DNA of 59,563 bases, the filler included, from Rhizaria sp. SCN 62-66 (lineage: Eukaryota), in assembly GCA_001724265.1 (NCBI GenBank). It is 2 parts of 2 records of this genome, joined end to end, with 100 filler letters (N's around TTAATTAATTAA, not from the genome) between each part and the next. Parts side by side here need not be neighbours in the genome. Positions count along the whole stretch, not along the records: positions 29,946 to 59,563 come from MEDY01000378.1; 1 more part is not named here. One strand, written 5' to 3'. The notes beneath the pieces are model-generated. The model was not told the DNA's origin. It made no database searches and saw only the letters and a program-made list of their open reading frames with translations. Position 1 is the stretch's first letter. Each line of letters begins with the position of its first letter. Of this stretch, positions 5,013 to 58,241 are shown piece by piece. The translations under genes were made by a program, and so were the position numbers.

Positions 5013-6527
5013 TTAGTTGAACTGTCCGGGGGGCAGAATCGGGTAGTTGCTCGTGATATGCTTGCGGTAAAAGTCAATCTGGAAGGCGAGATACTGCATC
5101 GTCGACGAGCGCTCGGACGGCGTAAGAAATGGCACCGTCGTCAGCTTCAACGTATCGTCCTTGACGCCAACATCCTTCAACGGCGGCAGCTCGCCCGCGC
5201 CGCGGCGCGCTGTGAGGTTGGGGAGTTCGCTGCCAGTGGCAGTGGGACGGTAGTGCAGTGTGTCGAGGCGGACGCGCGCCCAGTGGACCGCGCCGGCGGC
5301 CGGGATCGGCGCGTAGGCCGTCACGGTGGCGTTGAGGTGCGCCAGTCCGTCGGGCTCGACCGTGGGCGTGATGCGCGTGCCAAACTGCTGCGCTGTGGTG
5401 TAAAGCTTGTTGTTCTCGCTCAGGATGCCGGAGCGGGTCTTGGCCTGCCACTCGGGCTCCGCGACCTCAGACTTGCGGTACTGGCCCGCCGTGGGGGACA
5501 GACGATGAAAGCCGGAGAGGTAGCGCATGCGGCGCATGATGGCGCCGTCCTCGGCGCCGAGCCCCCACAGCGTGTTAGGGTAACCCTGGGTCTTGAAGAA
5601 GACGGAGATGTTTGCGGCGAACGCGCCGCCGAAGCAGTGGCCCTGCGGGAGGTAGTAGGTGTTGGACTTGCCGAGCTGCGGCTCGCCCTTGGGCACCGCG
5701 CCAGCGTCGGCCACGTAGTAGTGGACGGGCACGCCGCCGGGGCCGAGGTCGTAGGTGTTGAGGTCCGAGGCAGGGAGGTAACGCGGGTCGTGGATGACGA
5801 TGTAGTCGTAGCCCCAGTCAGCGGCGAGTTTGGCGCCGGCGTTGGCGAGCGCGCCGCGGTTGATGGCGACGTCGTAGCTGTCCTGTTGCACGGCCAAAAT
5901 GGCGAAATCGCGCCCGCGGAGCTTGCCGGCCTTAGTGAGATGCGCGTCGAGCTGCTTGAGGAACGGGGAAATGACTGTGGTGAGCTCGGTTGTGTCCGTG
6001 TCGCTGGCTTCAGCGTAGGGAACAATAACGAGCATCTTGCCGTTGGGCGCCTGAGCGTTGTAGGCCTTATGCGCGAGCGTGACGGCGGGGTGCTGCGGCG
6101 ACAACGATGCGGCGACGTCGAGGGGTAGCGTGAGAGCCTTGGGGGAGAAGTCGAGCTTGCGGGACTTCTCAGCCGTGGCGCTGGAACCAACGTCGGTCAT
6201 GCGGGTAAGCAGCTCGGTCGCGGCAGGGGCCAGCTAGACATTGTGCGTGGCCGCCATCGCGGGGGACATTTTGAACGCGGCAGGAGTGAGGAGGGTGGAG
6301 TAGCGCTCGAGGGCCTCAGCGCTGGGCTTCTGGTTCTCGCGGATCCTCTGCGCGTCCTGCGCGCGTGCCTCTGCGGCGATGAGGACGAGATCGGCGGAAG
6401 GAAGTTTCTTGGCAAGATTGCTCGCCTGGGCGTGAACGGTGCAGTCGGGGAACTGGGCTGCGAGAGCGGCCAGCAGTAAGCACACTACCGACACACGGAG
6501 CGACGGGAAAGCGCGGAATACGAACAT
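5013..6527 (-). CDS. Glycosyltransferase family 7 (B4GALT-like), type II membrane protein, 504 aa, with one in-frame TAG (6234-6236)
   Basis: GT7 motifs VIVPY, NRGALAN, YDYIVIHD, FGGAFA, GYPNTLWGLGAEDG. Upstream ORF 6234-6527 carries the N-terminal hydrophobic anchor (SVVCLLLAALAA) and is in the same frame, separated only by TAG (..HNV*LAPAATELLTRMTDV..). Stop TAA. Confidence 0.85.
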
Positions 6528-23400: not shown

Positions 23401-23687
23401 CGAGGGCAGGAAGCCTGGTGCGCAGAGTCGCGAGGCCAGCGGCGCGCGCGCGCGGCGACGGCGGCGGGACGACACAGGCGCGGCGCCCGGCGCACGGTAG
23501 CTCGCGGGCGCGAAGGCCGCGACCAGCTCGGCCGCCGCCGCGGGGTCTTGGGCGAGGAACTAGGCCGCCGCGGCCTCGGCCATGACGACGGCGACGCTCG
23601 CGGTGTCGGAGTCAGTGCTGCCGGCGGCGACTGTCAGCGCACTGCCACTGCCACTGCTGCCGTTGGCGTTGCTGCTGCTGTTGCTGC

Positions 23688-23718
<31 letters not shown>

Positions 23719-25753: not shown

Positions 25754-28700
25754 ATGTTGTTGAGCGCTCTCCTCTTCCCCAAGACAACAAGCCTCTCGCC
25801 ACAACGATGCTCACAACAACCGCAAGTTGTAGTGGCCTAGCACAGTGGCGATGCCGCTCTCAGTGGGCTCTCGCGCGCGCCGCACGCAATCGCGCGTCAC
25901 CGCTCGACTACGACCTCACCAAAAATCGCGGCTTAGGCCCGCCTTGCACCTGTTGCGTTACTGACATCATTGCTCCTTTGCATGTTGCTCTGCCTCATCA
26001 CCCCTGTCGTCGCTCTTATGTCCATGAACACTACAACTAATGTTACTAGTGCAAAGTTTTCAGGTTTAATCTGGTATAACATCACCTCGCTTAACTTCGG
26101 TTCCGGCGCCCAGGGCCTCATTAACTGCACAGAGCCGCCGGACACGATTATCGGCATCACAAGTGAGACATCGACAGATCTCATAGGCCAGTCAGCCACC
26201 TATCCGAAAACGGCCGGCAACACGTACTCCACTTCTCTTTTTGACATCGCCCCACTCATGTCATTTGTGTACCGAGTTGACAGCCTCACTCCGATCTCGT
26301 GCACCATCCTCGACATCCACGGTACAGCGCTCACCCTCGAGTGGACGGTCCCGCAGACGCCGCTGGCTCGCGCGGTGGTTTTTCACAGCTCAGTGGGCAC
26401 TGGCTCCGAGTCGACGACTATCACGTTTCCTGATTTGGTTGCGGCAGCCGTCATATTCTCGCTATTCTCACGGTCAGACTGGTATGAAATCACATTCCCG
26501 AGTGGGTTCACTTTGGAGCTTATCAGCGACACCGACCCCTCTCCTTTCGACTTCACAAAGATCCTGACAGGGTAGACCGTGACAGGGTACATTGTGAAGC
26601 CTAAAACGGGCCTTTATGAGTATGGAGCGTTTGCATCCCCCATGCTCCGCGGCTCGAGCTCGTTTCTTGGCGCCGACCTAAGCATCACTGTGCACGCCAG
26701 CGGCCGCAGCATCACGCTCAAGCCCACGAACCCAACATATTACGAATCAAAGGAGTTCATGGTCACCAGTTATTGGGGGCTAAATCTGCCGCTTTCAAGC
26801 GTCTCTGATGGCTACGTGTCTACGATGAGCATGAACAACGTCTTGCCGGTCGGTACAAACTCGTTCTCGATGCTGGTTCCGGGCCCAAACGTTTTCGAAT
26901 TTGTTGTGTTGAACGGCACCGTGCACACCGCCGCCGCAGCCGTGTGCAACGGTACTACATCTTGCACGTTTTCGTGGACTTTAGTCACCATTGTGAGCCC
27001 AAACGAGCTTGTGTACGCGCTGAGCCGCCAGGATAGCTACCTGACGGGCGCCAACCTCCCCCACATCCCTGCATCTCCAGACACCGACAAGGTCGGAAAT
27101 TTTTACCCAGTGACTTGGGGCTCGAGCGCTAAGCTCCTGCATGTGGAAGACACTGGGTTCATTGTTACGACGTCGCGCACTGCCAGCACGGGCGATCTCA
27201 CGTTCCGCGTCGCCGCGCGCGGGCCCTATTCGTATCTGTCCACGCTCGACCAATTCCGAGTCGAAAACACGGGATTTTCCAACTGTAGCGAGTCTGTTAC
27301 GATGGTTCCTCACAGTATTGCTGTGAATCCAACTACTGCGCTGTTTAAGTACACTTCAACCGAGGCTGATTTTGTGTACTTCACGTTTTCATGTTTGTTC
27401 AAGCCCAGCGAACATTTCTACAACGCACAATTTTTCTCTATCGTTGGAATCAACAACGCTACGCAGCGGAATGCGTACCTCAGCTCCACTGCCGCCTCTA
27501 CAGGGATTGCGTTCACATCGTTTGCCACGACTGCCGCCACATTCTCCTCGTCTTACACCACCGTTGGCTCGCTCCCTGTGTATCTGCGTTCCAACGACTT
27601 TACCGAATCGACGCTGCGCGTCATGTGTGCAACAAACCCCAGCACTAGCGCCTGGGTCCAATTTTCCGGCTCTGTCTCCGCCCCGCCCGTTGCGGTCGAG
27701 CACACGGAAGCGTGGACCGCGTGCACTGTGCTCGAGGCGTCGTGGTTTTGCTCGAAGTCTCCCGCTGCCGCAACAAATAGCGGCAACGTTATCATGGTAT
27801 TTCGCGGCTCGAGCTCTGTCACGTGCCGTTTCGCCGATAAGTACGGTCTTGCGCCGCACAACCCGGTGACAGTCGCGGCGACTGCGGCGGCGCCATTCCG
27901 CCTTACGGTGAAGCTCTCGGAGACCACGGCCGGCAATGTCGAGTTCTGGTTCGGCCCGCCGGCTACTCCGTCGGCAACGTATGTGATGGCGCCGCAAGAC
28001 GCGCTTGTGTTGGAGCGTGCGAATACGAACGACGCCGTTTGCGACGCATCAAACACTCTTGCGAGTTCAACTGTTGCGTACAACTCGGGGACGCTAAAGA
28101 CTTCGCTAGCGTCGACCGTGCCGCGCGTGGCAAGCAACGCCGCAAACTCGGTGCGCGCCGTGTGCACCATGACGATGACCGGCATTGCTAATTGGGTGAA
28201 GTTCTACTACAGCAGCAGCGCGCAGCTTGTTTCGGCTGGCAGCTCGACCGTTACGTCGTCCTTTACTTCTCCGGTTGCTGCTCTTGGTATAGTTTTTGAA
28301 CCAGCTGCAACTGCACTCACTACTGTGACAAATACTGTGGTCGCCACTGGTATTCCAACCATCACGCCTGCGTCAACATCCGAAAGCTATAACGGATTTG
28401 TGTGCTCTGAGGCCATTAACATTGTGCGTGTGAAGAACGTCACAGGTGCCAGTGGGACACTCACGAGCTCTGACATCGCAACGTTTCCGTCGCTGTCGTG
28501 GGGTAAACAGACATATTCCGACTACTATGTGCAGGCTAATGACCCCAACACAAAGCGGTCCGTTGCCTTGTTGCACCGTTCTGTTACTCTTGTCACCTGT
28601 GCCGTGTTTAACAGCCTTGGCATCCGCCGCTACACTGCGGGTGCTGTGTCTGCATCGCCGCTAGCACCGGCAAAACAGGCACTAACGATCACAATCACGC

Positions 28701-29845: not shown

Positions 29846-29945
29846 NNNNNNNNNNNNNNNNNNNNNNNNNNNNNNNNNNNNNNNNNNNNTTAATTAATTA
29901 ANNNNNNNNNNNNNNNNNNNNNNNNNNNNNNNNNNNNNNNNNNNN
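29846..29945. other. Artificial contig linker N44-TTAATTAATTAA-N44
   Basis: Exactly 100 bp containing the six-frame-stop spacer TTAATTAATTAA. The flanking contigs may not be truly adjacent. Confidence 0.95.
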
Positions 29946-30459
29946 CCGTTTTTCTACATTAACATGAACAAGACTGTGGAAACTGTCGAGAGCAAGAACA
30001 TGAGCAAGACTGTGAAGCCTGTTTAGAGGACGTAATTGCAGTTGCTGAAGTTAGTCCTTAAACTTGTTGAAGACGTGATCCGGGACCTCACGGAAATGAC
30101 CAGGAATCACTCTCTTGCTCGTTACTACTCGCACATGCGCAATCAAGTCAAGGTCATCGGGCTGAGGGGTGAGATTACGTATCCCTCGGAGGATGTTTAT
30201 TATGCACTCGATAAAATGAATGTAGCTAACAAGGCTATTAAGGGGAATAATAACAACAATTCATGTAGTACAGTATATATAAAATAGTTTCATTATTAAT
30301 TACAACCGTTTTATTGAGATCGACATTTTTAAATCTGAAAATACAAAAATCAACCATTTCATGTATCTCTTAATTTTCGACCATAATCAGTACAATCGAC
30401 TGTACATTTGTTTTGTACCTGTGTACTCACATACGTACACATCATTACACGTGAGCCTC

Positions 30460-33400
30460 TTAGAACCTGCGCTTCTTGGCAGCATGTCCGTCGATCTCAA
30501 GCGTGACTACAGCATTAGCGCCCGCAGCACCAGCGTTGCCGGCGCCCGCAGTCGGCACGCCTCCACCGAAGGCACGGCCGAACGTACTGAAGCCAGCAGC
30601 GCCAGCAGCAGGCGCGGCGGCAGCGGCAAGAGCCGCGTTGCTGGCGCCCAGGCGCGCAGCCTCAGCGCTGACAACGGCGGCGATCAGCGCCGCGGTTGTG
30701 CCCGCCCCCGTCTGCGGGGGCACCACCTCGACCGTCACGGACGCCAGACTGTCCACATCGCCCTTGCCGGCCGCCGGAGCGGTGCTCGCGAGCGGGTTGG
30801 CGTTGGTGTCGGCGAGCATGTCGTAGGTGCCCGTGAGGCCCAGCAGTGCCATGACCGCGCCCTTGCCGCCCAGGTCGCCGCGGCCCGGCTGCCGCTGGCC
30901 GGCCACGGCAGCGGCAGCGGCGGCGGCGGTGGCGCCCGGCGCGGGCAGCAGCGGCAGGTTGTAGCGGCCGCGCGTGACCGCCCAGGCCGGGCCGGCCGCG
31001 AGGTGGCCCAGCTCGCCCGCGCCGGCGCCCAGGACGCCCGTGCCGAACACGTTCACGCTCGCGGTCACCGCCTCCGCCCCGGCGCCCGCGTCGGCGACGC
31101 CAACAGGGTTGACGGTGTGCGAGACAGGCACACTCGCGCCCGCCTCGGCCGCGGCCGCAGCAGTGACGATGCCGGCCGCGAGCCTGCCCGCGCCCGTCGC
31201 GGCCGCCGCGCCCGTGACGGGCCCCGCGCCCGTGCCCGCGCGGTCCAGCAGCCCGCCGTCGCGCAGCGCGCCCACTGTCATCGCCGGATTCGCGCCCCCC
31301 GCGCCGGCGCTACTAGACGCGCTGGCGTTGTGGTGGGCGAGGGTGTGCGCCAGCGCGAGATCGTTGGCGTCGGCGGTGACGGCGTGCGAGAGCAGCACGC
31401 CGCCCTCGACGAGCCCCGGGCCCGGCGTGACGGCGAACTCGAGCGAGCCCAGCCCGCCCGCCGCCGCCGCGGGCTCAGAGTCGGGCCGGTAGCCGGACCG
31501 CAGCCAGGCCGACAGCGCGGGAGCGCCGTTGGCCGCCGCAGCCACGGCGGCGGCCGCGGCGGCACCGGCGGCAGTCGCGGCGGCCGCCTTGCTGGTGGGG
31601 CCGCTACCGACCGTGGCCGCTGCAGCCGCCGCCGAGGCCGCCGCAGCGGCGGAAGCAGCGGCCGTAGCGGGGTCGGCGAGCGCAGTCGCAAGCGCGCGCG
31701 AGAGCGGCGGCGCGCGCGCGAGGAGGTCCGCGATGGCGCCGCGCGAGGGCGCGGGCTGCGGGTGGCCCGCGGCGGCGAGCGCGTGCGCGTGCATCAACAC
31801 CACGGCTGGGTCGACCTCGACCGCCACGGGCAGCGGCACGAAGTCGTCGCTGTCGCTGTCGTCCTCGTCCACGTCATCGTTGCTGTGGCTCTTGTCGGCG
31901 GCAGTGCCGCGGTGCTTGAGAGCGGTGCTGCTCTTCTTCCACACGGGCAGCAGCGGGGCGGCCGCGGCGGCTGCGGCAGCGGCGGCGGCGTTGATAAGGC
32001 TGTGGCTGTCGTCGTCCTCGTAGCCCGCGCGAGAGGGCTTGAGACCGCCGTTGCCCATGTGGCTCGCGCCGCTGTGCGAAGAGTGGCACTTGCACGAAGA
32101 CCGCTTGGCGTCACGCGCCAGCTCGCTCTTGAGCTCTTGCTTCACTTCCACGACGCCGTAGCCCCCGGCGCCGCCGCGATACAGCAGCGCGCCCTCGCCG
32201 TTGCTGGCGATGGACTCTTCGCTCTTGACCTTGCTGGGCGCCGGCGCGCGGCCCGCGGCGAGCACGCTGGTGGCGGTGACCGAAGTCAGCACCAGCGTCT
32301 GCGCGCAGGGTCCCGGCGCCGTGGACAGCGCGCTCGTGATGGCCTTCTCGGCGCGCGCCGCGGCCGCCGCAGCCGCCGCGGCCGCGGAGGCCGAGCCGCC
32401 GCCGAGGGGCGAGCCCAGCGCCGAGTGGTGGCCCGAGAGCAGCCCGTTGCTGTGGGCGCCAATCACGCTACCCGAGGGCAGCGGCGCGGCCTCAACGAGG
32501 TCGTACTCGTCCTCGCGCTCCACGTACGCCACGTTGTCGGTGAGCTCGAGGAAGTCGGGCGCGAAGGCGGACCACTTCTCCTTGGCGGGACGCGTCCACA
32601 GCAGCAGCAGCCCCGTTGCGGTGACCGAGGCGACGACGGGGCGCAGCGGGTGGCACGCCAGGTCCCACGCGCCCAGCGACGGGCCCGGTAGCGCGGGCGG
32701 CACCGCGAGCCGCGAGTACGGCGCGGGGAACGGGTATGCGTGCGCGGCCGAGACGGCGGCGGCGTGCTCGGCCGCGGCGCGGGCCGCGGCGCGGGCGGCC
32801 AGCGCGCGTGGGGACGGCGGCGGCGAGAGGGTTGCAGCAATGGCGGCGCTGGCGTCGGAGTCGGTGCTCACAGTGCTGGCAATGCTGTCGGAGCTGGGCA
32901 GAACACTTGCATTGGCACTGGCACTGCTGCTGTTGTTGGACTCATCGCACATGGCGGCAGCGGGTTCCTGCTTGATGATGTCAGAGGCGATCTCTGTCGC
33001 AGCAGCAACAGCAGTGGCGGCGTCCGCCTCAGCAGCGACAGTAGCGAGAGCATCCGCAGAGCGAGGAGCTTCGCTCGCGCTGACGTTACTGCTAGGCTCG
33101 GTCTTCGGCTCGACAGAAGCGGGGCCGTTGTCACTGCCAGCCGGTTTGCTTTCACAGCTGCTGCTAGCTGTGTCAGACTCAGCCTTCACGTCGCCGACTG
33201 GCACAGTCGCAGCCGGAGTCGCGCTTAGAGTGTCGGTGACGTCACTGTCAGTCATCGCCACTGCAGTGGACGGCACAGCGGCATCCACATCAGCTGCAGG
33301 AGCACTGTCGTCAGGAGCAGCAGCAGCAGCAGCGGCATTGGCAGCAGGAGCAGCATCTGCGTCAGCAATAGGAGCGGTAGCGTCGGCTACTAGAGCAGCA

Positions 33401-36400
33401 GCATCAGCATCAACTTCAGGAGCAGGAGCAACCGCAGCAGGAGCAGCAGGAGCAGCGTCGACAGCAGAGTTAAGAGCAGATGCAGATGCACTGCTCGAAC
33501 TGTCGTCGCTCATAGCCTTGCTCTCACCCTCGGTACTCACAGCCTCAACATTAGCCTCGGCTTCAGCCTCAGTATCAACTTCGGCCTCAGCCTTAGCCTC
33601 GTCCTCCGCCTCAGACTCAGCCTTGGCGGCCGCCTTGTCCTTGGCAGGAGTACCGCTCTTGGTACTGGACTTCGCAGCTCCAGACTTCGCATCGTCCTTG
33701 GCCTCGCTCGCATTCGCACTGCCGCTCTCGGCCGCATCGCCGGCAGCGTCAGCGTCAGCAGCGGAGTCGACGGACGAGGCCACAGAGGCTGACGCGGAGG
33801 TGATATGGGACGTGGCGGGGGCATCGCTGTCTGAGACATCAGCATCAGCCTTAGCCTTCGAGCCGGTCTCGGCTTTCGCCCTGGACTTCGCCCCAGCCTT
33901 GCCTGCAGGGTCGGCGCTCTCAGTCGCCGACGCCTCAGACTCCGACTCGCCCTCCTCCTTCTTACTTTCCTTCACTCTCCTCTTGTCTGCAGTAGCGGTA
34001 GCAGCGGCGGCGGCACCGGCGACAGAGACGTCGTACACCCTGCCCGTGATGGCCGTGACGGCGCCGAGCAGTTCCTTGGCGGCCTCGGTGACCGTCGCGG
34101 CCAACCCCATAAGCGTCCTGTTGCGCTCTGACGGGTCCACGGGCGGGGCGGTCGCGGCGCTGGTGGCGGCGGTGCGCCGCAGCGCGTCGGCCAGCGGCTC
34201 CGCGGCCTCGCGCACGACGGCCATGACCCTGACGCGGCTCTCGGGGGTCCTGGTCGACGCGAGCGACCGTAGCGCGGTGGCCACGGGGCCGGCCAGCTCG
34301 GCGGGCGCGCCGATCGCGCGCAGCAGCGAGCGCTCCAGCGAGCCGGGCTTGTTGCCCTTCTCCACGGCCGCCGCCGCCGCCGCGGTCCGCACGCGGGCCG
34401 CCGCGGCCGCGCCAGCCACGGCCGCGGCTTCGGCGCGAGTCCGCGTGTACTGCACAGGACAGTCGGCCGCGGCCTTGGCGTCAGCGTCCGAGTCGGCGGC
34501 CGAGGCGGAGCCGTCCTCGTCGTCGGCGCTCGCTGCAGTCGCCGCCGCCTTACCGCCGTTGGATTTGGCGGGGCTCGCCTTGGCGCTCGCAGTCGGCTTG
34601 TGCGCGGTCTTGACGGGACTGGCCTTGGCGCTCGCAGACGCCTTGCCCGCAGGGCGCACCGGGCTCTTGTCAGCGCTCTTCGCAGAGCTCTTGTTGTGAC
34701 TCTGCGTCTTGCTGTTGGCATTGTCGTCTTCGGTGTTATCGTCGTCGTCGCTGGATTGCGCGTCATCGCTGTCGCTGTCCTTGCTGGCCGCGGCCGCAGT
34801 TTTCTTGCTGCTCTTCTTCTTCTTGGCGTCGCTCTTGGCGCTCTTGTTACTCAGCTCGCGCGCGCTGGGCGTCTTAGCCCGGATTTCGCTGTAGTTGATC
34901 CCCGCGCCTCCCGCCGACTCGCGCCTGCGGCCGCGACGCTGTTCAGCAAGCTTGCCGTCAGCGTCATCGCCGTCGTCGCCATAGTCGTCCTCGTCGTCGT
35001 CTCCGTCGCTGCCGCTATAATCTTCATTGTCGTCGGTCATAGCGACCGTGGGCTTGAGCGCGGACTGTTCCTCAAGCTTGATTTTATCAGCGGTAGCAGT
35101 ATCGATGACGGGGATGCGGCGCTTGCGCATGATGCCCTTGTACTCGTTCACAGCGCTGGCACTCTCGCCGTCGTCGGTAACAGCCACACTGGCATTGGCA
35201 CTCGCAGAGGCACTGCTGTCGGCGTTGCCACTAGCGCTGCGGTCGTTATCGTCCATGCTGTGAGCAGCATTGCTAGCAACACTGACGTCATCCACAGCAC
35301 TCGCGCTCGCACTCCAACTCGCACTCGCGCTCGCGTTGGAGTCAGCGGAAGCGTGGTCGCCGCTCGCGTTGCCGTCAGCGGCAGCGTGGTCGCCGCCCGC
35401 GTTGGCGCTGTTGACGAGGCTGACGGATGTGGTCTCCGTGTCGACGACGGCGGTGGCGCGGCGCTCCCCGACGCCCAGACTGAGCATCAGCAGGTCGTGG
35501 CGCGCCGTGTCGGCCGCGACCGTGACGGCCGTGTCGCCCGTGCACGTGAAGGCCACTGTCTTCCACGTCACGCGCTCGATGATGTCGGAGAAAGACGACA
35601 GAGGCTGCGCCCACCGCAGCGGCGGCAGCGCGCGTACGCCCGGGACCTTGCGCGCGCGGGGCGCCACGGCCTGTGCAGGCGTCAGCAGCGGCACAGCGGC
35701 AGCGGGGGCGGCAACAGGAGCGTTGGCAGCATCGGCTGCGCTCGAGCTCGCACTCGCACTCGAACTTGAGCTTGCGTACAAGTTGTAGCTGTTGTCACCA
35801 TTGCCGTCGGCAGTAGCGGGGACCGCGACGGTGGAGCTGGTGAGCGTGTTGCCGTGGCAGTCTGCCTCGCTCTCGGTCACCGTCGCGGTCGTCTTGACCG
35901 AGGAGAGGACGAAGAACCGGATCGTGCGGTCGCTCGAGTTGACCGCCAGCGTGTAGCTCGGCCCTGGCTTGCGCACAGTCACACGCGTCCGCGTCCGCGA
36001 CACCGGTACCGCAGCAGCGGCCGCGGCAGCAGCGTCAGTGTCGAGGGCCAGGTCGCCGCTGTCGGCGTCGTCGCGGGGAAAGCTGAGGGGGTACTGGGAC
36101 TGCCAGAGCGCAAGCGCGGCGGCCCGGCTGAGGCCCGCGCAGGCGCCGGTGCACTCGCACTCACACTTGGTCTCGATGGTGCTGGCGCTGGCACTGGAGG
36201 CGCTAGAGCCGCTCTGGCTGCTGTCTTGCGCGCAGGTGCAGGGGCAGGAGCAGTAGCAGGCGCAGGCGCAGGCGCAGGCGAGGCACGTGGTGTGGCAGTC
36301 GCAACCGTGGCCGCAGTCGTAGAACGCGCCGACGCCGTCAGTGCCGTCGCTGGGATGGCGACTGCTCGCCGCCGCAGCAGCCACAGGGCCGGTGCGGAGG

Positions 36401-37229
36401 CCGGGGCCGAAGGTCGCGCTGGAGCCAGCGCTGGAGCCCTTCGCCGCCGCAGGAGCGAGAGCGAGAGCCGAGGTCGGGACCGCGGCAGGGCCAGCGGCAG
36501 AGGCAGCGGCGGGCGCAGCGGCGGCGGCGGCGGGGACCGGGACGCCGGGGGGCAGCGCGTATGGCGCCGGCGCGCGCTGCTTGAGCGTGAGAGTGTGGAT
36601 GGTGGTGACCGTAGGCAGCGACACCACCAGCGTGAGCACCAGCCCCAGCTGTGACAGCGGCAGCCGCAGCGGCAGCGGCTGGGGCTGCCGCTACGACGGC
36701 GGCGGTAGTAGATGTGAGCTACTCGAGCTGCCGCCGTCGCAGTCGCCATCCCTCATCTCGCCCCGCCAGGATTGACTCTGCCGCTGGCGCGCGGTGGGCG
36801 CGGTGAGCGCAGTGAGGGAGAAGACGAGGACGCGGCCGCGCGAGGTGCCGGCGACGAGCGCGTCGCCGTGGGGCGTCCACGCGGCCGCCGTCGCGCGCTC
36901 CGCCGCCGCCGCCACGCTCGAGCTCGTCGTAGCGTGCGGCGCCGGCGCCACCAGGAACGGCAGAGGTGCAGGTGCAGGCGCAGGCTGCGGCAGAGACTGG
37001 GGCAGGGCCGGCTCGAACTGCGACTGCGACTTGACAGCGGAACTACTGCTGCCGCTGCCGATGCCGTCGCCGCTGCTGTCGTTGCCGTCCTGGCTGTCAG
37101 AGTCCTGCAGCTGAACCTGCTGTAACAGCCGCTGCTGCTGCTGCTGCTGCTCTTGCAGCTGCTGCGCGACAAGCGCGGCCGGCGGCTCGTACCACTGCCG
37201 CAGCCCCAGCGCGCCACTCAGCAGCAGCA

Positions 37230-37260
<31 letters not shown>

Positions 37261-38226
37261 AGACTGCTGCTGAGACTGCTGCTGCTGCTGTTGCTCCACA
37301 CTGCGCTGCCGCAGCGTCGCGCCAATCACGGTGCCCGCGGACGGCGGCTGCAGCCAGAGCCGGCCCGGCAGCGTCTCCGGCGCTGACACGGCCGCCACGG
37401 CCAACGCGGCAGCAGCAGCAGCAGCAGCATCGTCAGCCGCGCACGAGCTCGAGCTCGAGCTGGAGCTGGAGCCTGAGGGCACAGTGGCGGCGGCGGCAGC
37501 GGCGGCAATGGCCGCGTCGGCCGCCGCCTCCCCCGGTTTGCCGCCGCCGGAGCTGCCGGCCGCGCTGCCGCTGCCGCCGCTGCTGTTGAGGTTCATGGCG
37601 GCGATGCGGCGCTTGGCGGCGCGGGCCGCAGTCTGCGCGGCGAAGGGGTCGATCCGCGCGGCCGTGCCCGAGGGGTCGGCGTCCAGGTCCACAACGAGCG
37701 CGCCGAGCCCCAGCGCGGCGGCGCCGGCCGCGGCGGCGCTCGCGGAGGCGGGGCCGGCGAGCGGGCAGAGCACGGCGAGGTGCGGCAGCGTCGGGTGCAG
37801 CTGCGACCAGCGCAGCGGGAAAGGAACCGACACCACGCGGTCCGCCGCGCCGCACGACACCACCGCGCCACACGACAGCGTTGCAGTGCGCGCGCCACCC
37901 GCCGCGTCTGCGTCGGCGTGCGAGCATGAAACAGGGCGCGGCGCGAGGTCGAAGCGGGCGGCGGTGCCGTCGCTGGAGGAGGCGAAGACGTAGCGACCGT
38001 CGCGCGTGCTCGAGACAGAGATGACGGGGCCCGTAAGCCCGCGCAGGCGCGCCGCAATGGTGTGCGCCGCGGTGTCCCACAGCACAACGTCGCCCGAGGC
38101 CGTGCCGACGAGCAACACAGAGCCCTTGCGCGTGAAGGCGCAACAGGTCGCGACGCCGACGTCGACCGTGGACTCGAGCACCGAGGGGAAGTCGGCCTCG
38201 AACGGGTCCGACAGCGCGAGGTCCAT
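30460..38226 (-). CDS. RBBP5: RBBP5/SWD1 COMPASS (H3K4 methyltransferase) WD40 subunit, ~2588 aa, one in-frame TAG (36691-36693)
   Basis: N-terminus MDLALSDPFEADFP...CAFTRKGSVLLVGTASGDVVLWD. After the TAG: LAVNSSDRTIRFF, DIIERVTWKTVAFT, WDLACHPLRPVVASV and the diagnostic EKWSAFAPDFLELTDNVAYVEREDEYD. Same frame throughout, stop TAA. Confidence 0.9.
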
Positions 38227-38883
38227 CGCGCGGGCGGAGCAGCGCTCGCGAAGCGCGGGGCGCGGGGACGCGGTGTGTAAGGCCCGGGTTGGGCGGGAGC
38301 GGTGGCGGGAGCGCGGGAAAAAAGAGGGCGAGGAAGGGGAAAAGTGCGAGAGCTGGGAAAGGAAAGAAAATGGAATGGAACAGTTAGAATTGAAAATCTT
38401 CGCATAATTGTAAATGTTCTTCCATGAAAAGGTAGTTATATCCCTATTAACGGAGGTCTCACAGAGAACATAACACTTTCGCAGGAGGGCCCCGTTTGGC
38501 GCTCTCCAGTGCATTGGCGCTGACTGGCAGCCTCGGTCAACTCGGTCGATCGGTCTGGTCGACCGAGCTTGGTTGGTCGAGCAAAGTCAAGCCGCCAAGT
38601 TGGTGATTGTGGTGGAAACAATTGAACTCTCTGGAAGGACCATTTCGACCGTCTATGCGTTTCTGCGCATCACAATCGCTATTTTCTTGTTGCGATCTTT
38701 CTATGCATATTTTCTCTGGCGCTGTACAAAACCGTCTTGGCACTGAGATCGCCCCTGATTTGGAGCTGAGTCGCGTCTGAATGAGACGTTGAGTGACCCC
38801 ACCTGTTATCGGCCTGAATTCTTCCCGTATACTCACTGATTTCTATCTGCCTTTTTACTGCACTGTACCCACGCTTGCAAAAG

Positions 38884-39980
38884 ATGTTCCCCACGTCGAA
38901 CGACTACGACCGCGGCATCAACACCTTCTCTCCTGAGGGTCGTTTGTTCCAGGTCGAGTATGCCATCGAGGCTGTCAAGGTTCGTCCCATCTCCCGTCTC
39001 ACCGCCTTCGTCTGAACCTGCCTACGTCTCACATCCTGTGCTCGCCCCTGCAGTGCCTTATCCCACACGCACACGTCTGTAGGCGCTGCCCTGCTTGATC
39101 CCTGCACTCGCACTGACCTCATGATGCCCTTCGTAAATCTCACAATGACAATCTTCCTTCTCTTTGCTTTCCTGTCTTTTTCTTGGTTCTCCTTCCCCCC
39201 TTAGCTCGGCTCTACTGCCGTGGGCGTGCAAGTTGCCGAGGGCGTTGTGCTGGCCGTTGAAAAGCGCTCGACGTCGAAGCTGCTGGTCTCGTCCTCGCTG
39301 CGCAAGATCGAGAAGCTGGACAACCACATTTACTGCGCCATGTCTGGCGTCGTCCCCGACGCGCGCACGCTTATCGAGCACGCGCGCGTCGAGACGCAGA
39401 CGCACTGGTTCAACTTCGACGAGCCGATCAAGGTGTCCCGCGCGGTGTCGGCGATGTGCGACATGGCGTCTGGCTTCGGCGAGGGCAACATGGCGCGTCC
39501 CTTCGGCGTCGCGCTGCTCGTCGGCGGCGTCGACGAGGACGGGCCCGCACTCTACCACCTCGACCCCTCCGGCACAAAGACCAGGTACGTGTGCACATAG
39601 CGCGACGACCGAACAAGATCATGTTCTTGCTTTCACTCTTACGATGTTGATTTATGTTACGCAATCTGTCCCCATGACTCAATCACTCACACATACTGCT
39701 TTCTCTCTCTCTCCTCTTTTGTTTTGCACAACACACTCTCCCTCTGGTATCTCTTCTTCTGTCTCTCTTGTTTGCTCTGCACCACAGGTTCACCGCCAAG
39801 GTGATCGGTGCCGGCGCCGAGGCGGCCCAGGCGACGCTCAAGGAGCAGTACAACAAGAGCATGTCGCTCGAGGATGCCAAGAAGCTCGCGCTCGACATCC
39901 TCAAGCAGGTCATGGAGGAGAAGATCACCGAGCACAACGTCGAGGTTGCGCTCATCCCTCTCGCCGTTGCCGCAGTCTAA
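38884..39980 (+). CDS. PSMA5: 20S proteasome subunit alpha-5; exons 38884-38979, 39205-39584, 39788-39980
   Basis: [39 protein letters not shown]...[17 protein letters not shown]...ARPFGVALL...LKQVMEEK. Introns GTTCGT..TAG and GTACGT..CAG. Stop TAA. Confidence 0.95.
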
Positions 39981-42058: not shown

Positions 42059-44200
42059 ATGGAGCCTGCTGCGCCCGCACTACACGCGGCCGCCGCGTCG
42101 GCTGCCACGGCCACCTGCGAGTCCCTGCGTGCCGCGCTCTAGGCCGAGTCTCTGAAGGTTTTGCGTCTGCGCCACGACTACGAGCAGGCCTCGCAGCGCC
42201 TGCTCGCGATCCGCGCCAAGCTTGACAGCGCAACCAGCGCTGCCGAGGCCGACGCCGACGCAACTTTGCTCTCGGCCTCGTCCTCGCTCGTGTCGCCGCA
42301 CCTGTCCACGGACTTGCGCGTGCATGTGACCGTTCCCAGCGCATTTTTACCACAAACCACATTTCCATCTGCTAATGAGAACAAGGATTGCGCGACCAGC
42401 AGCTCTAGCGCCAGCAGCTCGGACTCGAGCGCCAGTGCCAGCGCCAGCGCCAGCGCCACGCGCGCGGCCCCGACGGACCCGGGCTTCCTCCCGCGCGCGG
42501 CGAAGAAGGCGCGTGTGTTCTCGGTGGCGCGCCCGCGGCCCGACGGGCACCTGCTGTCTCAGCTCTGCGTCGTGCTCGTGCGCACCGAGGGCGGCGTCAA
42601 CCTGGGCCAGATCTGCCGCACCGCTGCCAACCTGGGCGTCACCGACGTGCGCCTTGTCGCGCCGGAGTGCGCGCCGCTGAGCGCCGACGCGCGCCGCTTT
42701 GCGCACCACGCGCTGCCGCTGCTGGCGCACCTGCCGACGTACGCGTCATTGTCGGCCGCGGTCCGCGACTGCGAGCTCATCGTCGGCACCTCAGGCAAGG
42801 ACTGCGCGGGCCAGTTGCGCGGCGTCGCCTGGCTTGCGCCGCACGAGGTCCCCGCTGCCTGCCACAAGGCCGGCGTCTGGACCGGCGCCGTCCCCGCCGC
42901 CGCCGGCGACTCGGGTAGCAACAGTGGCGCCGGGAGCGCGAAGGATAAGAACACTGTCATTGGTTCCCGCAAGAGTGCGGCGGCCTTCAACGGCGCCGCT
43001 GCTCTTGCTGCTGCCAACAACGCAAGCAACAGCAGTGGCGCGAATGCTGATCAGCTGGCGATGACGACGGGCAATGTCAACAACATTGCCAACGTCAACG
43101 ACTACAGCGACTGCGATGACAATGATAGCGACTGCGACAGCGACACGGACAACGACGAGGACAGCGACGGTCACGACGATGACGCCAAGGAGACTGCCGC
43201 CAAGCGACGCGGCACGGGCGCGGACGCCGCGTGCCGCGGGCTCGACGTCGTGGCGATGATCGAGCAGGCCCTCGCGCGCGGCGTGCCGACCCTGCGCTCG
43301 CGGCCGCGGCGGCGGTACCGCAGCCAGGGTCCGCGCGTGGCGCTCGTGTTCGGAAACGAGGCGGACGGCATGACGCTCGCGGAGCTGCGTCAGTGCTCCC
43401 ACATGGTCACCATCCCCATGCGCGGCGCGTACCCCAGCATGAACCTCGCGCACGCCGTCACCGCCTGCCTCTTCGCCATCGAACACGCAGGGTGGCCTGC
43501 GGCGATCGCGGCCGCCGCTGGCGCCGCTACCAACGCCGCTGCTGCGCCGACGGGCATGAACACGACGACGCAGGTGAGCGTCCGCGACGGCTCTGAGGAC
43601 GTCTGCCTGCCTCTCCCAGCAGCAGCGGCAGCGACGGTGGCCTCCTCAGCGGGCTCGGGCTCTGGCGCGGGTAACGGCGCTCCGCACACCGGCAGCGCGA
43701 CTGCAGCGCTGCGCACGGTCGCCGTGGGCGGCGGCCACGCGCGGTCCGGCGCCGTGGCGCGCGCGGCGCCGCGCAGCCTGCTGGAACGGCTGCGGACGAC
43801 GCTGGAGGCGACGCTGCACCGACTCGAGGCCGGCATGGCCGTCACAAAGCCCGCGCAGCTGCACGCAATCACACAGCGCCTGCTGCGCACCGCCGCCGCG
43901 AGCAGCAGCAACGGCAGCAGCGACAGTGGCAGTGGCAGTGGCAGCGGCAGTTGCGCCGCGAACGAGAGCGCGACCGCCACAGCCTGCAGCGCCAAGGGCG
44001 GCTTCAGCGAGGCCGACGCGGGGTTCTGCCTGGGCGCGCTGCTGACGCTGAATCAGCGGCTGGACGCGCTGGCCAACAAGAACTCCGGCGCTGCGGTGCC
44101 CCCTCTGGAGCTGGAGCGGTTCCAAGCGCTCGCGCTGGCCGCGGACGTCGGCGCGGAGCTGCGGGCCAAGCCCACGCGCAGCACGGACGCGTTCAAGTGA
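42059..44200 (+). CDS. SPOUT RNA 2'-O-methyltransferase, TrmJ/LasT-like, 713 aa, in-frame TAG at 42140-42142
   Basis: Motifs VVLVRTEGGVNLGQICRTAANLGVTDVRLVAP, LIVGTSG, VALVFGNEADGMT..ELRQC..VTIP..YPSMNLAHAV. The only in-frame ATG upstream of the first catalytic motif is 42059, which needs reading through ..SLRAAL*AESLKVLR.. Stop TGA. Confidence 0.85.
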
Positions 44201-47875: not shown

Positions 47876-50672
47876 ATGACAAGCAAAGCGTCAGTTTGCG
47901 CGTTTTGCAGCAAGAATATTCGGTCTCTTATTGGAGTCCGCTCCGCACGCATCTGTGAGGCTTGCTTGCAGGTACGGATCCAAACGCTCGCGCACAAGCA
48001 GCTTGCTTCACAACCTTTAAATCTTCTCAAACTCACCTTTATTCACCTCATTTGTCGTGTTTCAGCAATGCCACTTGCTTTTTGCAAACTCTTACCTAGT
48101 CCATGTCTGCTTCTGTGCGCGCTCGCCCCGATTACCAATGAAATGCAGGCTGAGAACGCAGTGCAAGGTTTCGCCTCGTCATCGTCATCATCGTTTTCGG
48201 CCACCCAAGCAGCGACTCCCGCGCTGCGTACCCCTCACGTACGTCCTTGTCTGTGACGTCGATATGTCACATTCGCTAGTAGATTTTAGCCGCCTGGTCA
48301 TATTGTTCTCATGCTACAGTCAACAGGCTACGTATACTCTTTGCCCCTCATCCTTTTCTTCGACTCCCCGATTTGTCCATGTGCAGTTCTGTCATAAGCA
48401 CGGCGAACCTGTACCAATTTCGTTCTGGTGCGAGACATGCGCCGTTGTGTTCTGTGGCCACTGTGCATTTCTCAACAGCTATCACACCGGACACTCGATC
48501 AACTCCGTGGCCAGCAAGCACGCAGAGCTGCGTGCGCACGCGGCCACGCTCACTCCGCGCATTGCCACGCTTGCGAAGCAACTGGAGGAAGAGACTGCGC
48601 TTACAGCCACGCTGCGCAAACGCGCCGAGGCGTTGCAAACTGAGTTGCAAGCTCGCGCTGCATCCTTTAGCGAGCTTGCAGTTGCGCCGTACACTGCCCA
48701 GCTTGAGCTACTGAAGACGTTCATGACACAAACGGCAGCGCGCGAGACCAAGGCGCTCGCGAACGCGCACAAAACGCTCGGATCTATTGACAACTTTAAG
48801 GATGCACTCAGTATCGCGCGCTTGCACCGCATTCTGTTCCGCCCACCTGGCCCAGAGCCCGGGGACGGTGCCGACGGCGCTAGCGAACCGCGCAGTCTGG
48901 CGTACACACCGTGGGCCACTGCGCGCGCCGCGTTTGAGGCAGCGCTGACGGACGCGGTGGAGACTGTGACGCCGCGCACTGCCGTCTGCGAGGTCGAGGT
49001 GCCCCTCTCCGCGCTGGCGTCGTCTGCTGCTGCGGTGGAGCTGGGCACGGCGGAGCTGTGCGGCGTGGCGTTCGTCTGCCGCGTCCGCCGCGGCTGCAGC
49101 TGCGGCGCCGCTCCTCTCGTGCTTGCTGTGGAAGGGTCAGACGCAAGTTGCGCGCTGGCGCCGTGTACGTGTGCGATTGTGGGTGAAGTCGAGGCGCGCA
49201 CCGCCTCTGACGCCCTTGCAGCGCGCTACAACGAGTGCGCGGCGCGTGCGAAAGCAGTTGCGGAACTAATTGACACCGAGGACGCTGACGACAATGATGA
49301 CGATGATGCTAGGGAAAATGGCGCTGCGGCCGTTGCGCGCAACGGCAGTGATTCCAAAGACACAGTGTTTGGCACTGTACACGTCGAGTTTGCGGTTGCT
49401 GGCGCTGCTGATCAAGCCACCTACAAGTGCAATGTGATGCTCACAGACCCAAACAAGCGCGTTACCTCTGTTGCGCTTGCGAAGCACGCTGAGCTCATGG
49501 GCGGCAGCATTGCGAACGTCCGCGTGCGCTGCACTGTCGCCTTTCCCGACCTTTTTCATCAGGCGCGCGCGCTGCAGCTGTCCACAGATGCGCTGTCACA
49601 TGACTTCGCCGCGGCACAGCGGGCGCTAGCGCAGGGCAGCGCCGCTGCGGCGGCGGAGCTCGCAAGCAGTGTGCAACAGGCTGATGAGCTGCGCCGAAAG
49701 TTTGACGCGTTCGTAGACTTGCAACGGTTTGCGAAATCGGACGATGTTTTCAACAAGGAGCTTCTTGACGCGTTCAACAAGCATGTTGCGCATGTTCTTG
49801 AGAGCGGAGGCTATCCTATCATATGCCGGAATGTGGAAAACGCCCGTCTTAGGGAATCACACTGCCGATTTAAATGTAAAACCCCTGCTCCTGCGTGGAC
49901 CAGCGGCGCACCTTCAACATCTTTGACAGCACTGCAAACCAAGGCACGTGAGCATATCCTTGCCTACGCAGGCACCGCTATTGGGCTGAAGCACATCACG
50001 TCAGATGTGGTGATGACGGCGTCCTATCACACTCAACACGCGGGTCTTCAGGAGTACACTATTGTCATTCGACTTGACGACAAAAAGACTCCGTGCAATG
50101 CTGCTCACTTTCGCATTGCAGCAAATGCCAAAATATTATGTGATGCAATCCACAAGTGCTTTGCCCCCCCAGACCAGCTGGGTACTGTGCTGCCATTTAT
50201 CACGATGTCCAGCTGCTGCGTTTCCGGTCCGATCACCGTGCCTCCGGGCGATATTCTCTACGGGGAGATCTCATCTCCTGTGGATGCTGGCGCTGACGAA
50301 CATATATACCCTTTGGGGACTGTAATGATGTGTGCTAATATTATTCTTGATCCTAAAAACACGGATCATTAGACCCTGTTTTGGAGGTGTAACTCACAAT
50401 CGCAAAAGTATGATCATTTAGGCTATGATGGCGTTTTTTCAGGCACGACCAGCATACCTTGGTTCATCATCACGGAGCCCTGTGCAGCGAACCTTCTCCC
50501 TGGTGGTGTTGTCCCCGTTGGACGCGTGCTGTCCTGTGTGTTGGGACAGACTCCGTCGACGGACGACTTCGGCGACGCGCTCTTTAAAGCTGACAATACT
50601 CAGTGGTTTAGCGAGTACTGCAAGCGTCCATGTCACCCCTCAGTTCATTTCAAGCTATTTTGGAAGCGATGA
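47876..50672 (+). CDS. C4 zinc finger + B-box + coiled-coil (TRIM-like) protein; exons 47876-47971, 48149-48238, 48387-50672; in-frame TAG at 50370-50372
   Basis: Exon 1 has CAFC-x15-CEAC. B-box CHKHGEPVPISFWCETCAVVFCGHCAFLNSYHTGH is followed by a coiled coil. Both introns are phase 0, GTACG..CAG. The frame continues 99 codons past TAG to TGA 50670-50672, and that tail is conserved in the neighbouring paralog. Confidence 0.75.
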
Positions 50673-51717: not shown

Positions 51718-52318
51718 ACAACGAGCAAAACCTCGCTTTGCATGTTTTGTGACAAGTGTATTTGGATAGGTGGGAATCTCCGGGCACGCATCTGCGCAAC
51801 CTGTTTGCAGGTAAGTTAGCTCTTCGTCAGCACTATCATTGCTGTCACTCCACATCAGAAACCCTATCGACAAACGTGTAAATAACGAATCCGTTCTCAC
51901 ACGTGATGCCGTGTCTTTATCGTGACTTTTCTCTTTGCTTTCTTTGTCATGATTTGATCGTAGGCTGAGAACGAACTACAAGGATCATCACGTTCCAGCC
52001 TTTTGTCTGTCACTATTGTCCCGACCTCCGCTACTCCCGCACCAAAACCCTCAAACGTACGTTGCTCACTTGGTTATGATGATATATCTTGGTTCATCAT
52101 CACGGAGCCGTGTGCAACAAACCTTCTACCTGGCAGTGCTGTTCCTGCTGGTTACGTGAGGTCGTGGGTTCTGGGGATAGCCCCAGCGACTGAGGATTCC
52201 GGCGACACTCTTATTAACGCTGACAATACGCAGTGGTTTAGCAAGTAGTGCAAAGATAGATATCATAACTTCTTTCCTCATAAAATCTGTTTTTTTCACT
52301 TCGTCTTTGAAGCGGTGA
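51718..52318 (+). pseudogene. Internally deleted tandem duplicate of the B-box gene
   Basis: TSKTSLCMFCDKCIWIGGNLRARICATCLQ|GT matches exon 1 and AG|AENELQG...PSN|GTACGT matches exon 2. WFIITEPCATNLLPG...ADNTQWFS then follows almost directly and matches the parent's C-terminal tail. Start ATG is absent, ~2.1 kb is missing and the terminal TGA is out of frame. Confidence 0.75.
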
Positions 52319-56402: not shown

Positions 56403-58241
56403 ATGCGCCGCTCTCTTGTCGTGCTAGCCCGGCGCAGCACCGCGGCCGCCGATCCCAGCTTTATGTCTGAGCTGCTCTAGCTCTCCAGTGCCATCCCAAA
56501 GCCCGTGCGCGCGAAGAAGCAGACCGCAACCACTGCGTCAGTCACACTAAACACGGTCCAAAGCAACGGAATTGTCTCTGACATGGCCGCGGTTGCTTTC
56601 GCAACTAGCCTTGGCGCTGACCCACAGGTTGTGAAGCCCGCGCGGAAGCCCCGCATGACCAAGGCCGCCAAAGCCGCCGCCGAGGCCGAGGCCGCAGCTG
56701 CGGCGCTGGCAGCCCAAGTACAGGATCCTGCAGTTACTGCGGCGGCGGCGCTGGCGGCGACCCACGCCGCCACCGAGGCCGCAGTGGCCGCGCACGCGGC
56801 GCGGGTGAACGCGGCGGCGCGGCGCATTGTGCTGGACGCGCGCGCGGACGCGCAGGCGAACGTCGACCTCCATAGCCGCGACAGGAGGCACAGCACCGTG
56901 AGCAAACTCGCGATGATGCAGCAACAGCAGCAGCAGCAAATGCGCGCGCCAGTAAAGCAACAGGGCGATGCGACCTTTGCCCTTAAGAGCGCTAGTGCTC
57001 GCAAAAGCAGCAAGACGGCACCTGTGAGTGCTAGTGAAAGTGAGACGACGAGTGAACGCACGCTTACAGCCAAGCCCGCGCTCACCTTCACCAAAATCGC
57101 GCCACACAGCCCCAGCTCCGGTCCTAACCCTGACTCTGCTCGTGGCGCGGTTTTGCGCCCGCTGCCGCCGCCCGCGCTGGACCCCGCGACCGGCGAGCCC
57201 GAGTTCCGCCCCGCCTCAGCGCTGGACCGCTGCGCGGACGGGCTGCCTCCGTACCTAATCGGCGTGCATGCCTCGGCCGCGGGCGGGCCCGCCGCGGCCG
57301 TGGCCAACGCTCACGCGCTGCGCTGCGACGTCTTCGCGCTCGACGTGCGCAACAAGCGCCGCTGGGAGTCGCCGCCGCTGGCACCCACCGACGCCGCGGC
57401 CTTCCGCGCCACGATGCGCCGGCTGGGGTACCCGCTGCACGGCGGCAGCGTGCTGCCGCATGGGTCCTACCTTTGCAACCCCGCCTCGCCGGACCCCGCG
57501 GTGGTGGCCAAGACGCGCGCCGCGCTGGCCGACGAGCTGCGCCGCTGCGCGCGGCTGGGCGTCGCGCTGTACAACATCCACCCCGGCTCGGCAGTCACGG
57601 TCGCGGGCCGCGAGGGCGCGCTCGCCAGGGTCGCGCGGGGGCTCAACGAGGCGCTCGCGGCCACCGACGCCGACACCACCGAGGCCTGCGCTGCTACCGC
57701 CGCCATCGAGCGCGTCACTGAGGGCTCGAGCTGCAGCGCTCGCAATGCTGACTCAGCTATTACTGTCCCTAAGAAAGTGACCATCGTGCTTGAGAATACG
57801 GCTGGTGGCGGCGAGACGCTGGGCCGGTCGTTTGAGCAGCTGGCGGACATCATCGCGCTGGTCGAGGATAAGTCGCGCGTGGGCGTGTGCCTCGACACGT
57901 GCCACCTCTTCGCGGCCGGCTACGACGTCGCCACCGCGCGCGGCTTCGAGGCCGTCATGGCGCTCTTCGACGACGTCGTCGGCGCGCGGTGGCTGCGCGC
58001 GTTGCACGTCAACGACAGCGAGGGCGCGTGCGGCAGCCGGCGCGACCGCCACGCGCAGCTGGGCGCGGGCGCCATCGGACTTGAGTGCTTTGAGTACCTC
58101 ATGAACACTGACCGCTTCAGGGGCCTCCCGCTCGTGCTCGAGACGCCCGTGACCGAGCTCAGCGGGGACCGCGAGCAGGTTGCGCTGCTGCGCAGTCTCA
58201 CCAGCAAGAAGCTCCCCATCGTCGGCACGCTCGACGAGTGA
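56403..58241 (+). CDS. APN1: AP endonuclease, endonuclease IV/APN1 family, 612 aa from ATG 56403, in-frame TAG at 56478-56480
   Basis: Endo IV motifs IGVHASAAGG, VLPHGSYLCN, YNIHPGS, IVLENTAG, RVGVCLDTCHLFAAGYD, HVNDS..RDRH, LVLETP. In-frame ATGs at 56403 and 56463 lie upstream of a TAG. Stop TGA. A later start (ATG 56583) is possible. Confidence 0.9.

Follow-up and report, generated by a model that had tools for sequence, protein, structure and literature searches.

In-frame UAG as a probable rare sense codon in the RBBP5/Swd1-like gene and other genes of Rhizaria sp. SCN 62-66

The DNA considered here is a stretch of 59,563 nucleotides (nt) of Rhizaria sp. SCN 62-66 (assembly GCA_001724265.1), made of parts of two records joined by filler; the whole stretch is referred to as the window, and all coordinates are those of the window. 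The part taken from MEDY01000378.1 carries, on the minus strand, a gene for an RBBP5/Swd1-like protein, i.e., a WD40-propeller subunit of COMPASS, with one TAG in its reading frame. The evidence supports the conclusion that this TAG is not a terminator, and UAG probably serves as a rare sense codon in this eukaryote, whose genome is GC-rich and poor in introns and whose genes end with UAA or UGA. With regard to the mechanism by which TAG is passed, a genome-wide genetic-code change is the most likely one and, in our judgement, a probable one.

In the mechanism proposed, UAG would no longer act as a terminator and UAA and UGA would end genes. The RBBP5/Swd1 gene would then be intact, and the ribosome would place an amino acid at the UAG (36693..36691), which falls in an insert of low conservation that separates propeller blades 4 and 5. 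Past the UAG it would continue with blades 5-7 and with the C-terminal tail required by COMPASS in human and yeast. Such decoding would call for a UAG-reading tRNA (anticodon CUA or equivalent) and an eRF1 without UAG recognition. Translation of the UAG codon is what we infer from the sequence, along the lines of evidence set out below.

The RBBP5/Swd1-like gene and its in-frame TAG

The plus-strand triplet CTA at 36691-36693 corresponds to TAG on the minus strand, where an open frame of 2708 codons (30460..38586) results unless this TAG is taken as a stop. Under the standard code the frame is cut in two, namely 36691..38586 (631 amino acids, aa) and 30460..36690 (2076 aa). An original prediction, made from the sequence, had reported the TAG in this frame, and it was found to be the only one there; the local reading (..HLLPPPS*RQPQPLPL..) was identical on retranslation, and the roughly 2000 open codons said to follow the TAG were counted as 2076. 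The coding sequence (CDS) of the gene is placed at 30460..38226 (minus strand; 2588 codons, one internal TAG) and ends with a TAA at 30460-30462. Its likely start is the ATG at 38224-38226, from which the predicted protein (MDLALSDPFEADFP...) aligns with human RBBP5 from residue 1. The TAG (36691..36693, minus strand) is codon 512 of the CDS and residue 632 of P0001, the translation of the whole frame numbered from the 38586 end.

Homology to RBBP5 and Swd1 was found on both sides of the TAG by phmmer searches against PDB sequences, which agrees with the first blades having been placed upstream and the remaining blades with the WSAFAPDF segment downstream, all in one frame. RBBP5 chains were the top matches (whole-sequence E 1e-23) and Swd1/SWD1-like chains came next, e.g., the SWD1-like 6e29_D with E 7e-14. 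The N-terminus and blades 1-2 (37945..38226, minus strand; P0001 residues 121-214) correspond to human RBBP5 residues 1-95 with a domain i-Evalue of 4e-07. Blade 7, together with the conserved tail, WDLACHPLRP...WSAFAPDFLELTDNVAYVEREDEYDL (32491..32667, minus strand; P0001 1974-2032), corresponds to RBBP5 residues 299-356 with an i-Evalue of about 3e-12, and a 27-residue RBBP5 peptide, 5f6k_D, matches P0001 2006-2030.

The middle blades were placed by searching P0001 565-1045, along which 6e29_D aligns collinearly. The blade 4 strand TAAAWTPHGDALVAGTSRGRVLVF (36820..36891; P0001 566-589; 6e29_D 177-200) lies upstream of the TAG, whereas blade 5 (..SYTLAVNSSDRTIRFFVL.., ..LAVNSSDRTIRFFVL..; 35893..35979; P0001 870-898; 6e29_D 220-248) and blade 6 (..FSDIIERVTWKTVAFTCTGD..; 35473..35649; P0001 980-1038; 6e29_D 243-302, RBBP5 240-284) lie downstream, all on the minus strand. 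The whole-sequence E of this search is 0.0036, and the stretches score weakly one by one (i-Evalues 180, 5100, and 0.85), those of blades 4 and 5 being weak alone and supported by their collinearity; nevertheless, their order and family-typical motifs agree with Swd1. Owing to this collinear placement, the TAG falls between Swd1 residues 200 and 220, i.e., inside the propeller, with blades 1-2 and 4 before it and blades 5-7 and the WSAFAPDF...EREDEYD tail after it.

In its architecture the protein resembles known RBBP5/Swd1 structures (PDB 5ov3, 6kiu, 6e29, 6chg, and 6ven), with which its N-terminus, blades 4-7, and WSAFAPDF...EREDE[FY]D tail are collinear; it differs from them in having one UAG codon in the blade 4-5 insert. 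It is also far longer, at 2588 residues against 538 aa for the human RBBP5 chain in PDB, due to very large low-complexity inserts rich in Ala/Ser/Gln/Asp, of which the one between blades 6 and 7 takes up about 930 residues. Within the inserts, the minus strand at about 36100-36250 translates as CDCHTTCLACACACACYCSCPCTC and looks like a TG/CA-type dinucleotide repeat in frame; akin to it, the TBC gene described below has the runs HGHGHGHAHAHG and SRSRSRS.

It had been argued that a stop at this position would destroy a COMPASS subunit and that the codon is hence passed, a view favoured by the two-sided homology, by the recurrence of in-frame TAGs, and by gene ends other than TAG. Public records do list the N-terminal open reading frame (ORF) as a separate 607-aa protein, as would be expected if the gene were split and its N-terminal four blades and C-terminal part were made as two polypeptides that reassemble, although that entry is an automatic standard-code ORF call. 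After the TAG, however, the next ATG is found 402 codons downstream, past blade 5, and a C-terminal product with its own start is for this reason not sensible; it would lack blade 5 and the greater part of blade 6. There is also no intergenic or promoter-like AT-rich spacer, the GC fraction being 0.72, and a split gene is barely credible.

The 607-aa record, P0003 (MGnify, ENA), matches the window from an ATG at 38512-38514 up to the residue before the TAG, with 606 of 607 residues identical (99.8%; one substitution), and we take its 'FL=1' label to mean full length. Since a non-identical record ends at the same position, a base-calling error in this assembly, which the original prediction had named as an alternative source of the TAG, is unlikely. 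More broadly, the TAG could stem from a nonsense mutation, in a decaying or strain-specific pseudogene, or from a sequencing error, with a functional RBBP5 elsewhere. TAG is indeed the commonest product of random nonsense change here (61-63%), and the single-copy check was confined to the window; there, tblastn found no second RBBP5 copy. On the other hand, besides the end shared with the 99.8% identical record, 2076 codons are open downstream with the conserved tail intact, and seven such cases occur in 11 coding segments without any frameshift, TAA, or TGA. Errors or decay are therefore not regarded as the source, as 7 of 11 segments are hit and no frameshift is seen in frames of 2000+ codons, and an explanation of this kind is highly improbable.

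Searches for relatives with the RBBP5-like query returned only an unrelated WD40 kinase among proteins of near-equal length and only the near-identical fragment P0003 among shorter proteins, and consequently these searches supplied no orthologue to align at the TAG. Genes for the partners SET1/MLL and ASH2L were not found in the window.

In-frame TAGs in other genes and the codons that end genes

Frames were listed as bounded by TAA or TGA only, and the larger genes were then read for internal TAG. Across 12,228 codons in 11 coding segments (10 genes), the in-frame stops comprise 7 TAG, 0 TAA, and 0 TGA, where position-specific base composition would predict 26 TAA and 23 TGA. TAG occurs in seven of these 11 segments, i.e., RBBP5 and six others, at a frequency of 0.57 per 1000 codons, and its count of 7 is like those of the rarest sense codons (AGA 6, ATA 11). 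Conversely, the 12 gene ends checked (3885, 5013, 14375, 15273, 17488, 30460, 39978, 40429, 44198, 47153, 50670, and 58239) are formed by TAA in six cases, TGA in six, and TAG in none. If the true share of TAG were 20-30%, TAG-free ends would have a P of 0.02-0.09 (computed for 11 ends, a small sample). Only in the B-box gene does a late TAG come into question as a possible true end, and there homology runs past it.

Two of the six other genes lie on the minus strand. The TBC/RabGAP gene (CDS about 17488-24849) has its TAG at 23560..23562, with the TBC domain upstream and 2023 open codons downstream, while the TAG of the GT7 galactosyltransferase-like gene (5013-6527) is located at 6234..6236, between an N-terminal hydrophobic anchor and the catalytic domain. 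On the plus strand, a gene for a T/S-rich secreted or surface-like protein (about 25982-29845) has a TAG at 26573..26575, 197 codons past a signal-peptide-like start. The SpoU methyltransferase gene (42059-44200) has one at 42140..42142, 27 codons past the sole ATG preceding the SpoU domain, so that this gene's only usable ATG comes before its TAG. The B-box family gene (about 48264-50672) has its TAG at 50370..50372, followed by 99 codons that hold a conserved C-terminal block, and in the APN1/endonuclease IV gene the TAG at 56478..56480 falls in an N-terminal extension and is ambiguous, a later ATG at 56583 being possible. An eighth TAG, at 52246..52248 (plus strand), lies in a 73-aa paralogous B-box C-terminal block (52069-52266).

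The public APN1 protein, P0004 (552 aa), starts at an ATG past the APN1 TAG. With the standard code used to call them, public proteins such as P0003 and P0004 are cut short or N-terminally clipped, and the protein sets of this organism are probably clipped systematically. As for the T/S-rich gene, two runs of 44 N (29846-29889 and 29902-29945), 12 bases apart, stand at its 3' end, which is unreliable for that reason; an atlas search with its surface-like protein gave sub-threshold matches only (0.79 and 0.75). A large plus-strand gene without any in-frame TAG, at 8660-14377, encodes, in 1905 codons, a Stealth-domain (CR1-CR4) protein that has an LNR/Notch repeat and resembles GlcNAc-1-phosphotransferase.

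Terminators and in-frame TAGs differ in the base that follows them. A purine is found after 12 of 12 terminators (G in ten, A in two), which is a strong termination context, versus three of the eight in-frame TAGs (Fisher p = 0.0036), which have C, T, C, A, G, C, A, and T at +4. Pyrimidines at +4 are linked to weak termination. Their presence at five of the eight TAGs would thus suit a UAG that is still a stop, and leaky, with programmed or tolerated readthrough by near-cognate tRNAs at a serviceable rate and no dedicated tRNA or altered release factor; so would the rarity of TAG noted above and the position of all eight in poorly conserved segments, which would tolerate mixed or inefficient insertion. 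Yet TAG terminates none of the 12 genes whose ends were checked, and inefficient readthrough in half of the genes would be very costly, given that the 7 of 11 segments hit include an essential COMPASS subunit and the SpoU gene with its only usable ATG upstream. Moreover, neither a shared readthrough context nor downstream structure is apparent: the +4 bases form no common motif, no common 3' context was found among the eight TAGs, and a search for stimulatory RNA structure after the RBBP5 TAG revealed nothing exceptional (z = -0.97; 28 of 200 shuffles fold equally well or better). A leaky stop is, on balance, unlikely.

The B-box gene provides a second case based on homology. With 301 residues around its TAG, translated with table 15, as query against 1.84 billion representative proteins (E <= 1e-3), 72 representative homologues were found (P0124-P0195). 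In 59 of these a single BLASTP alignment spans the TAG position, and in 36 of the 72 both flanking conserved blocks are covered; judged by these alignments, the regions on either side of the TAG are parts of a single protein in this family. The block within the 99 codons past the TAG is matched by a paralogue at 52069-52266 with 60% identity (E 8e-20), and the differences between the two are mostly synonymous (proportion of synonymous differences, pS, 0.55; of nonsynonymous ones, pN, 0.18; dN/dS about 0.21; 65 codons). The family consists of a B-box, a coiled coil, and an unnamed C-terminal region with two conserved blocks and a variable linker, of which Pfam sees the B-box only. The paralogous stretch at 52069-52266 (plus strand) may be a last exon belonging to some other gene, or it may be a fragment. 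Another record, P0140, is 99.6% identical to the B-box protein of the window over 560 residues; after 49943 it departs into the +1 frame of the window DNA, which amounts to an indel difference between records, and on account of this +1-frame reading it was set aside as uninformative on the TAG.

With respect to the amino acid inserted, the B-box TAG column is a gap-rich, variable linker and uninformative. In the paralogue, the TAG is aligned with a TAC (Tyr) of the first copy, and similarity resumes after it (WFSEYCKRPCH versus WFSK*CKDRYH). This one site hints that the amino acid might be Tyr, in a column that is variable across the family (R, H, Y, Q, S, and L). The alignments as a whole fix no amino acid for UAG, as all eight TAGs lie in poorly conserved segments.

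The same pairing bears on mRNA editing as a way of correcting the TAG, for instance by A-to-I change of UAG to UGG (Trp). A-to-I editing of premature stops is known in some filamentous fungi, and the fact that all in-frame stops here are TAG, the triplet favoured by such editing, fits that precedent. Against this, the paralogue comparison pairs TAG with TAC (Tyr) and not with TGG, a density of 7 in 11 segments is far above the fungal precedent, and gene ends free of TAG (12 of 12) are not predicted by editing, which is accordingly rated very unlikely.

Coding signal, introns, and the weight of the evidence

Coding signal was scored with a codon-usage log-likelihood ratio (LLR) model trained on gene bodies, from which the segments upstream of TAGs were excluded. 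In frame 0, the upstream segments score 0.41 (RBBP5), 0.55 (TBC), 0.48 (GT7), 0.41 (surface protein), 0.41 (SpoU), and 0.43 (APN1) per codon, and the other two frames are negative in all of them; the segment past the B-box TAG scores 0.12 per codon. The controls, comprising two introns, a 5' untranslated region, and two post-stop regions, are negative in every frame. The sequence on both sides of each TAG is coding-like in codon usage. When RBBP5 was excluded from training, frame 0 was the best frame in 99 of 102 windows of 50 codons.

Five real introns are present in the window, and these served for comparison with any intron that might enclose a TAG. They are located at 1626-1814 (mitochondrial-carrier gene), 46381-46636 (PRMT gene), 47972-48065 (5' part of the B-box gene), and about 38980-39204 and 39587-39788 (proteasome alpha-5 gene). 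Their lengths are 94-256 nt and their GC contents 34-55%; four of the five have the donor GTAC and one has GTTC, and in four of the five at least 14 of the 20 bases before the AG are pyrimidines. Around the RBBP5 TAG, GC is 0.71-0.72, and of 97 frame-keeping GT..AG pairs that enclose the TAG none has a GC below 0.68. A consensus-like donor occurs in just two of the 97 (588 and 600 nt), both of which would delete blade 4. This is in accordance with the claim that the TAG lies in GC-rich sequence (about 72%) without intron signals, as no credible enclosing intron was found. At the other six sites, consensus-like intron candidates were absent except for three long ones at GT7 (345-522 nt, GC 0.58-0.65).

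These figures bear on the possibility that an unrecognised in-frame intron, or another excised element of the blade 4-5 insert, contains the TAG. Some 40 codons around the RBBP5 TAG carry a weak frame-0 codon signal, a fairly pyrimidine-rich stretch precedes it, and the TAG itself could pass as an acceptor. But the lack of any candidate with a GC below 0.68, against 34-55% in real introns, the loss of blade 4 with the two real-like donors, and coding signal on both sides of the other six sites, with no consensus-like candidates save the three at GT7, leave such an intron little credence.

More generally, exons and other DNA of this genome differ in composition. Exon GC is about 53-77% in the scored segments, with third-position GC of 0.66-0.92 in most, whereas introns and intergenic DNA are AT-richer (GC 0.33-0.55), e.g., 0.74 at 36001-38000 versus 0.33 at 30160-30459. 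Introns are few, and conserved proteins are swollen several-fold by low-complexity inserts of Ala/Ser/Gln/Asn/Asp.

Several observations weigh against UAG as a sense codon. All eight TAGs are outside Pfam-recognised domains or in variable linkers. About 12 genes are a small sample, and at the share of TAG among random nonsense changes given above (61-63%), seven out of seven has a P of about 0.03, which is modest alone. No close relative was identified by APN1: a search with its domain found the organism's own protein, P0004, and then 44-49% identity at best (Botryococcus, Symbiochloris, Rhodelphis, chytrids, and other fungi), with nothing above 49%. At the RBBP5 TAG, the two 50-codon windows that contain it score -0.16 and -0.05, the weakest local signal of all sites, and at 36600-36730 (minus strand), for about 30 codons (about codons 501-530, in 15-codon windows), another frame outscores frame 0. 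The original prediction, which regarded this TAG as the strongest single case, stands in that the homology argument is strong; it does not with respect to the local codon signal, and the B-box gene is an equally good homology case.

The frame that scores better at the RBBP5 TAG reads as an Ala run (..LTSTTAAVVAAAPAAAAAAAAVTAGAG...) and has its own TAG ten codons upstream (GAG TAG CTC), while frame 0 is Pro/Leu-rich there (CCG/CTG codons) and is penalised by an Ala-biased model. The weak local signal may reflect a low-constraint insert and not a change of frame, and it is a real weakness still. A double frameshift around the TAG was considered and rejected, since the alternative frame would run into its own TAG 10 codons upstream, no slippery heptamer was seen by eye in the 25-nt interval, and the pattern is absent at the other sites.

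Relation to known UAG reassignments

Nuclear code changes outside ciliates are confined to a handful of lineages, and changes of UAG without UAA are rarer still, according to Panek et al. 2017 (PMC5304391). The same paper describes two nuclear codes in which UAG alone is changed and UAA and UGA terminate, namely Rhizaria sp. exLh (UAG = Leu) and Iotanema spirale (UAG = Gln), and reports for exLh 56 UAA and 15 UGA ends with no UAG, and 384 in-frame UAGs in 71 genes. The window is like both in that only UAG occurs in frame and only UAA or UGA at gene ends (6 TAA, 6 TGA). It is unlike exLh, where UAG is abundant, in the rarity of UAG (7 in 12,228 codons), and unlike both in genome style, with GC-rich exons and huge low-complexity inserts. 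The pattern in the window is of the same kind as known UAG-only reassignments and differs from them in codon rarity and genome style.

UAG has also been reassigned alone in some ciliates, namely phyllopharyngeans (PMC11687900) and Oligohymenophorea sp. PL0344 (PMC10553269), and with these the window would share a meaning of UAG that is uncoupled from that of UAA. In programmed stop-codon readthrough, described for Drosophila (PMC13278127), translation continues across an in-frame stop to give a longer product. Readthrough normally yields a C-terminal extension on a complete protein, whereas here an essential part of the protein is encoded after the stop, and none of the gene ends checked in the window is a TAG. 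Nor does the window look ciliate-like, considering its GC-rich exons, introns of 94-256 nt, and TAA at 6 of 12 ends. Literature searches listed no lineage outside the ciliates that is GC-rich and uses UAG as a rare sense codon, which does not show that the case is unpublished. As to the decoding apparatus, no tRNA genes or Rfam matches and no eRF1 gene were found in the window.

Tentatively, and with somewhat more doubt than confidence, the pattern may represent an undescribed nuclear code variant of a deep-branching, GC-rich eukaryote that has no close relative in protein collections. In such a variant UAG would be a rare sense codon, possibly for Tyr, and the reassignment would be an early one in which the codon is confined to unconstrained segments. 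If UAG is a sense codon in this organism at about 0.6 per 1000 codons, its genome would capture, as a natural snapshot, a reassignment during which UAG is still scarce, and would bear on the debate between codon capture and an ambiguous intermediate. In that case, standard-code gene calls would be wrong for perhaps half of this organism's genes.

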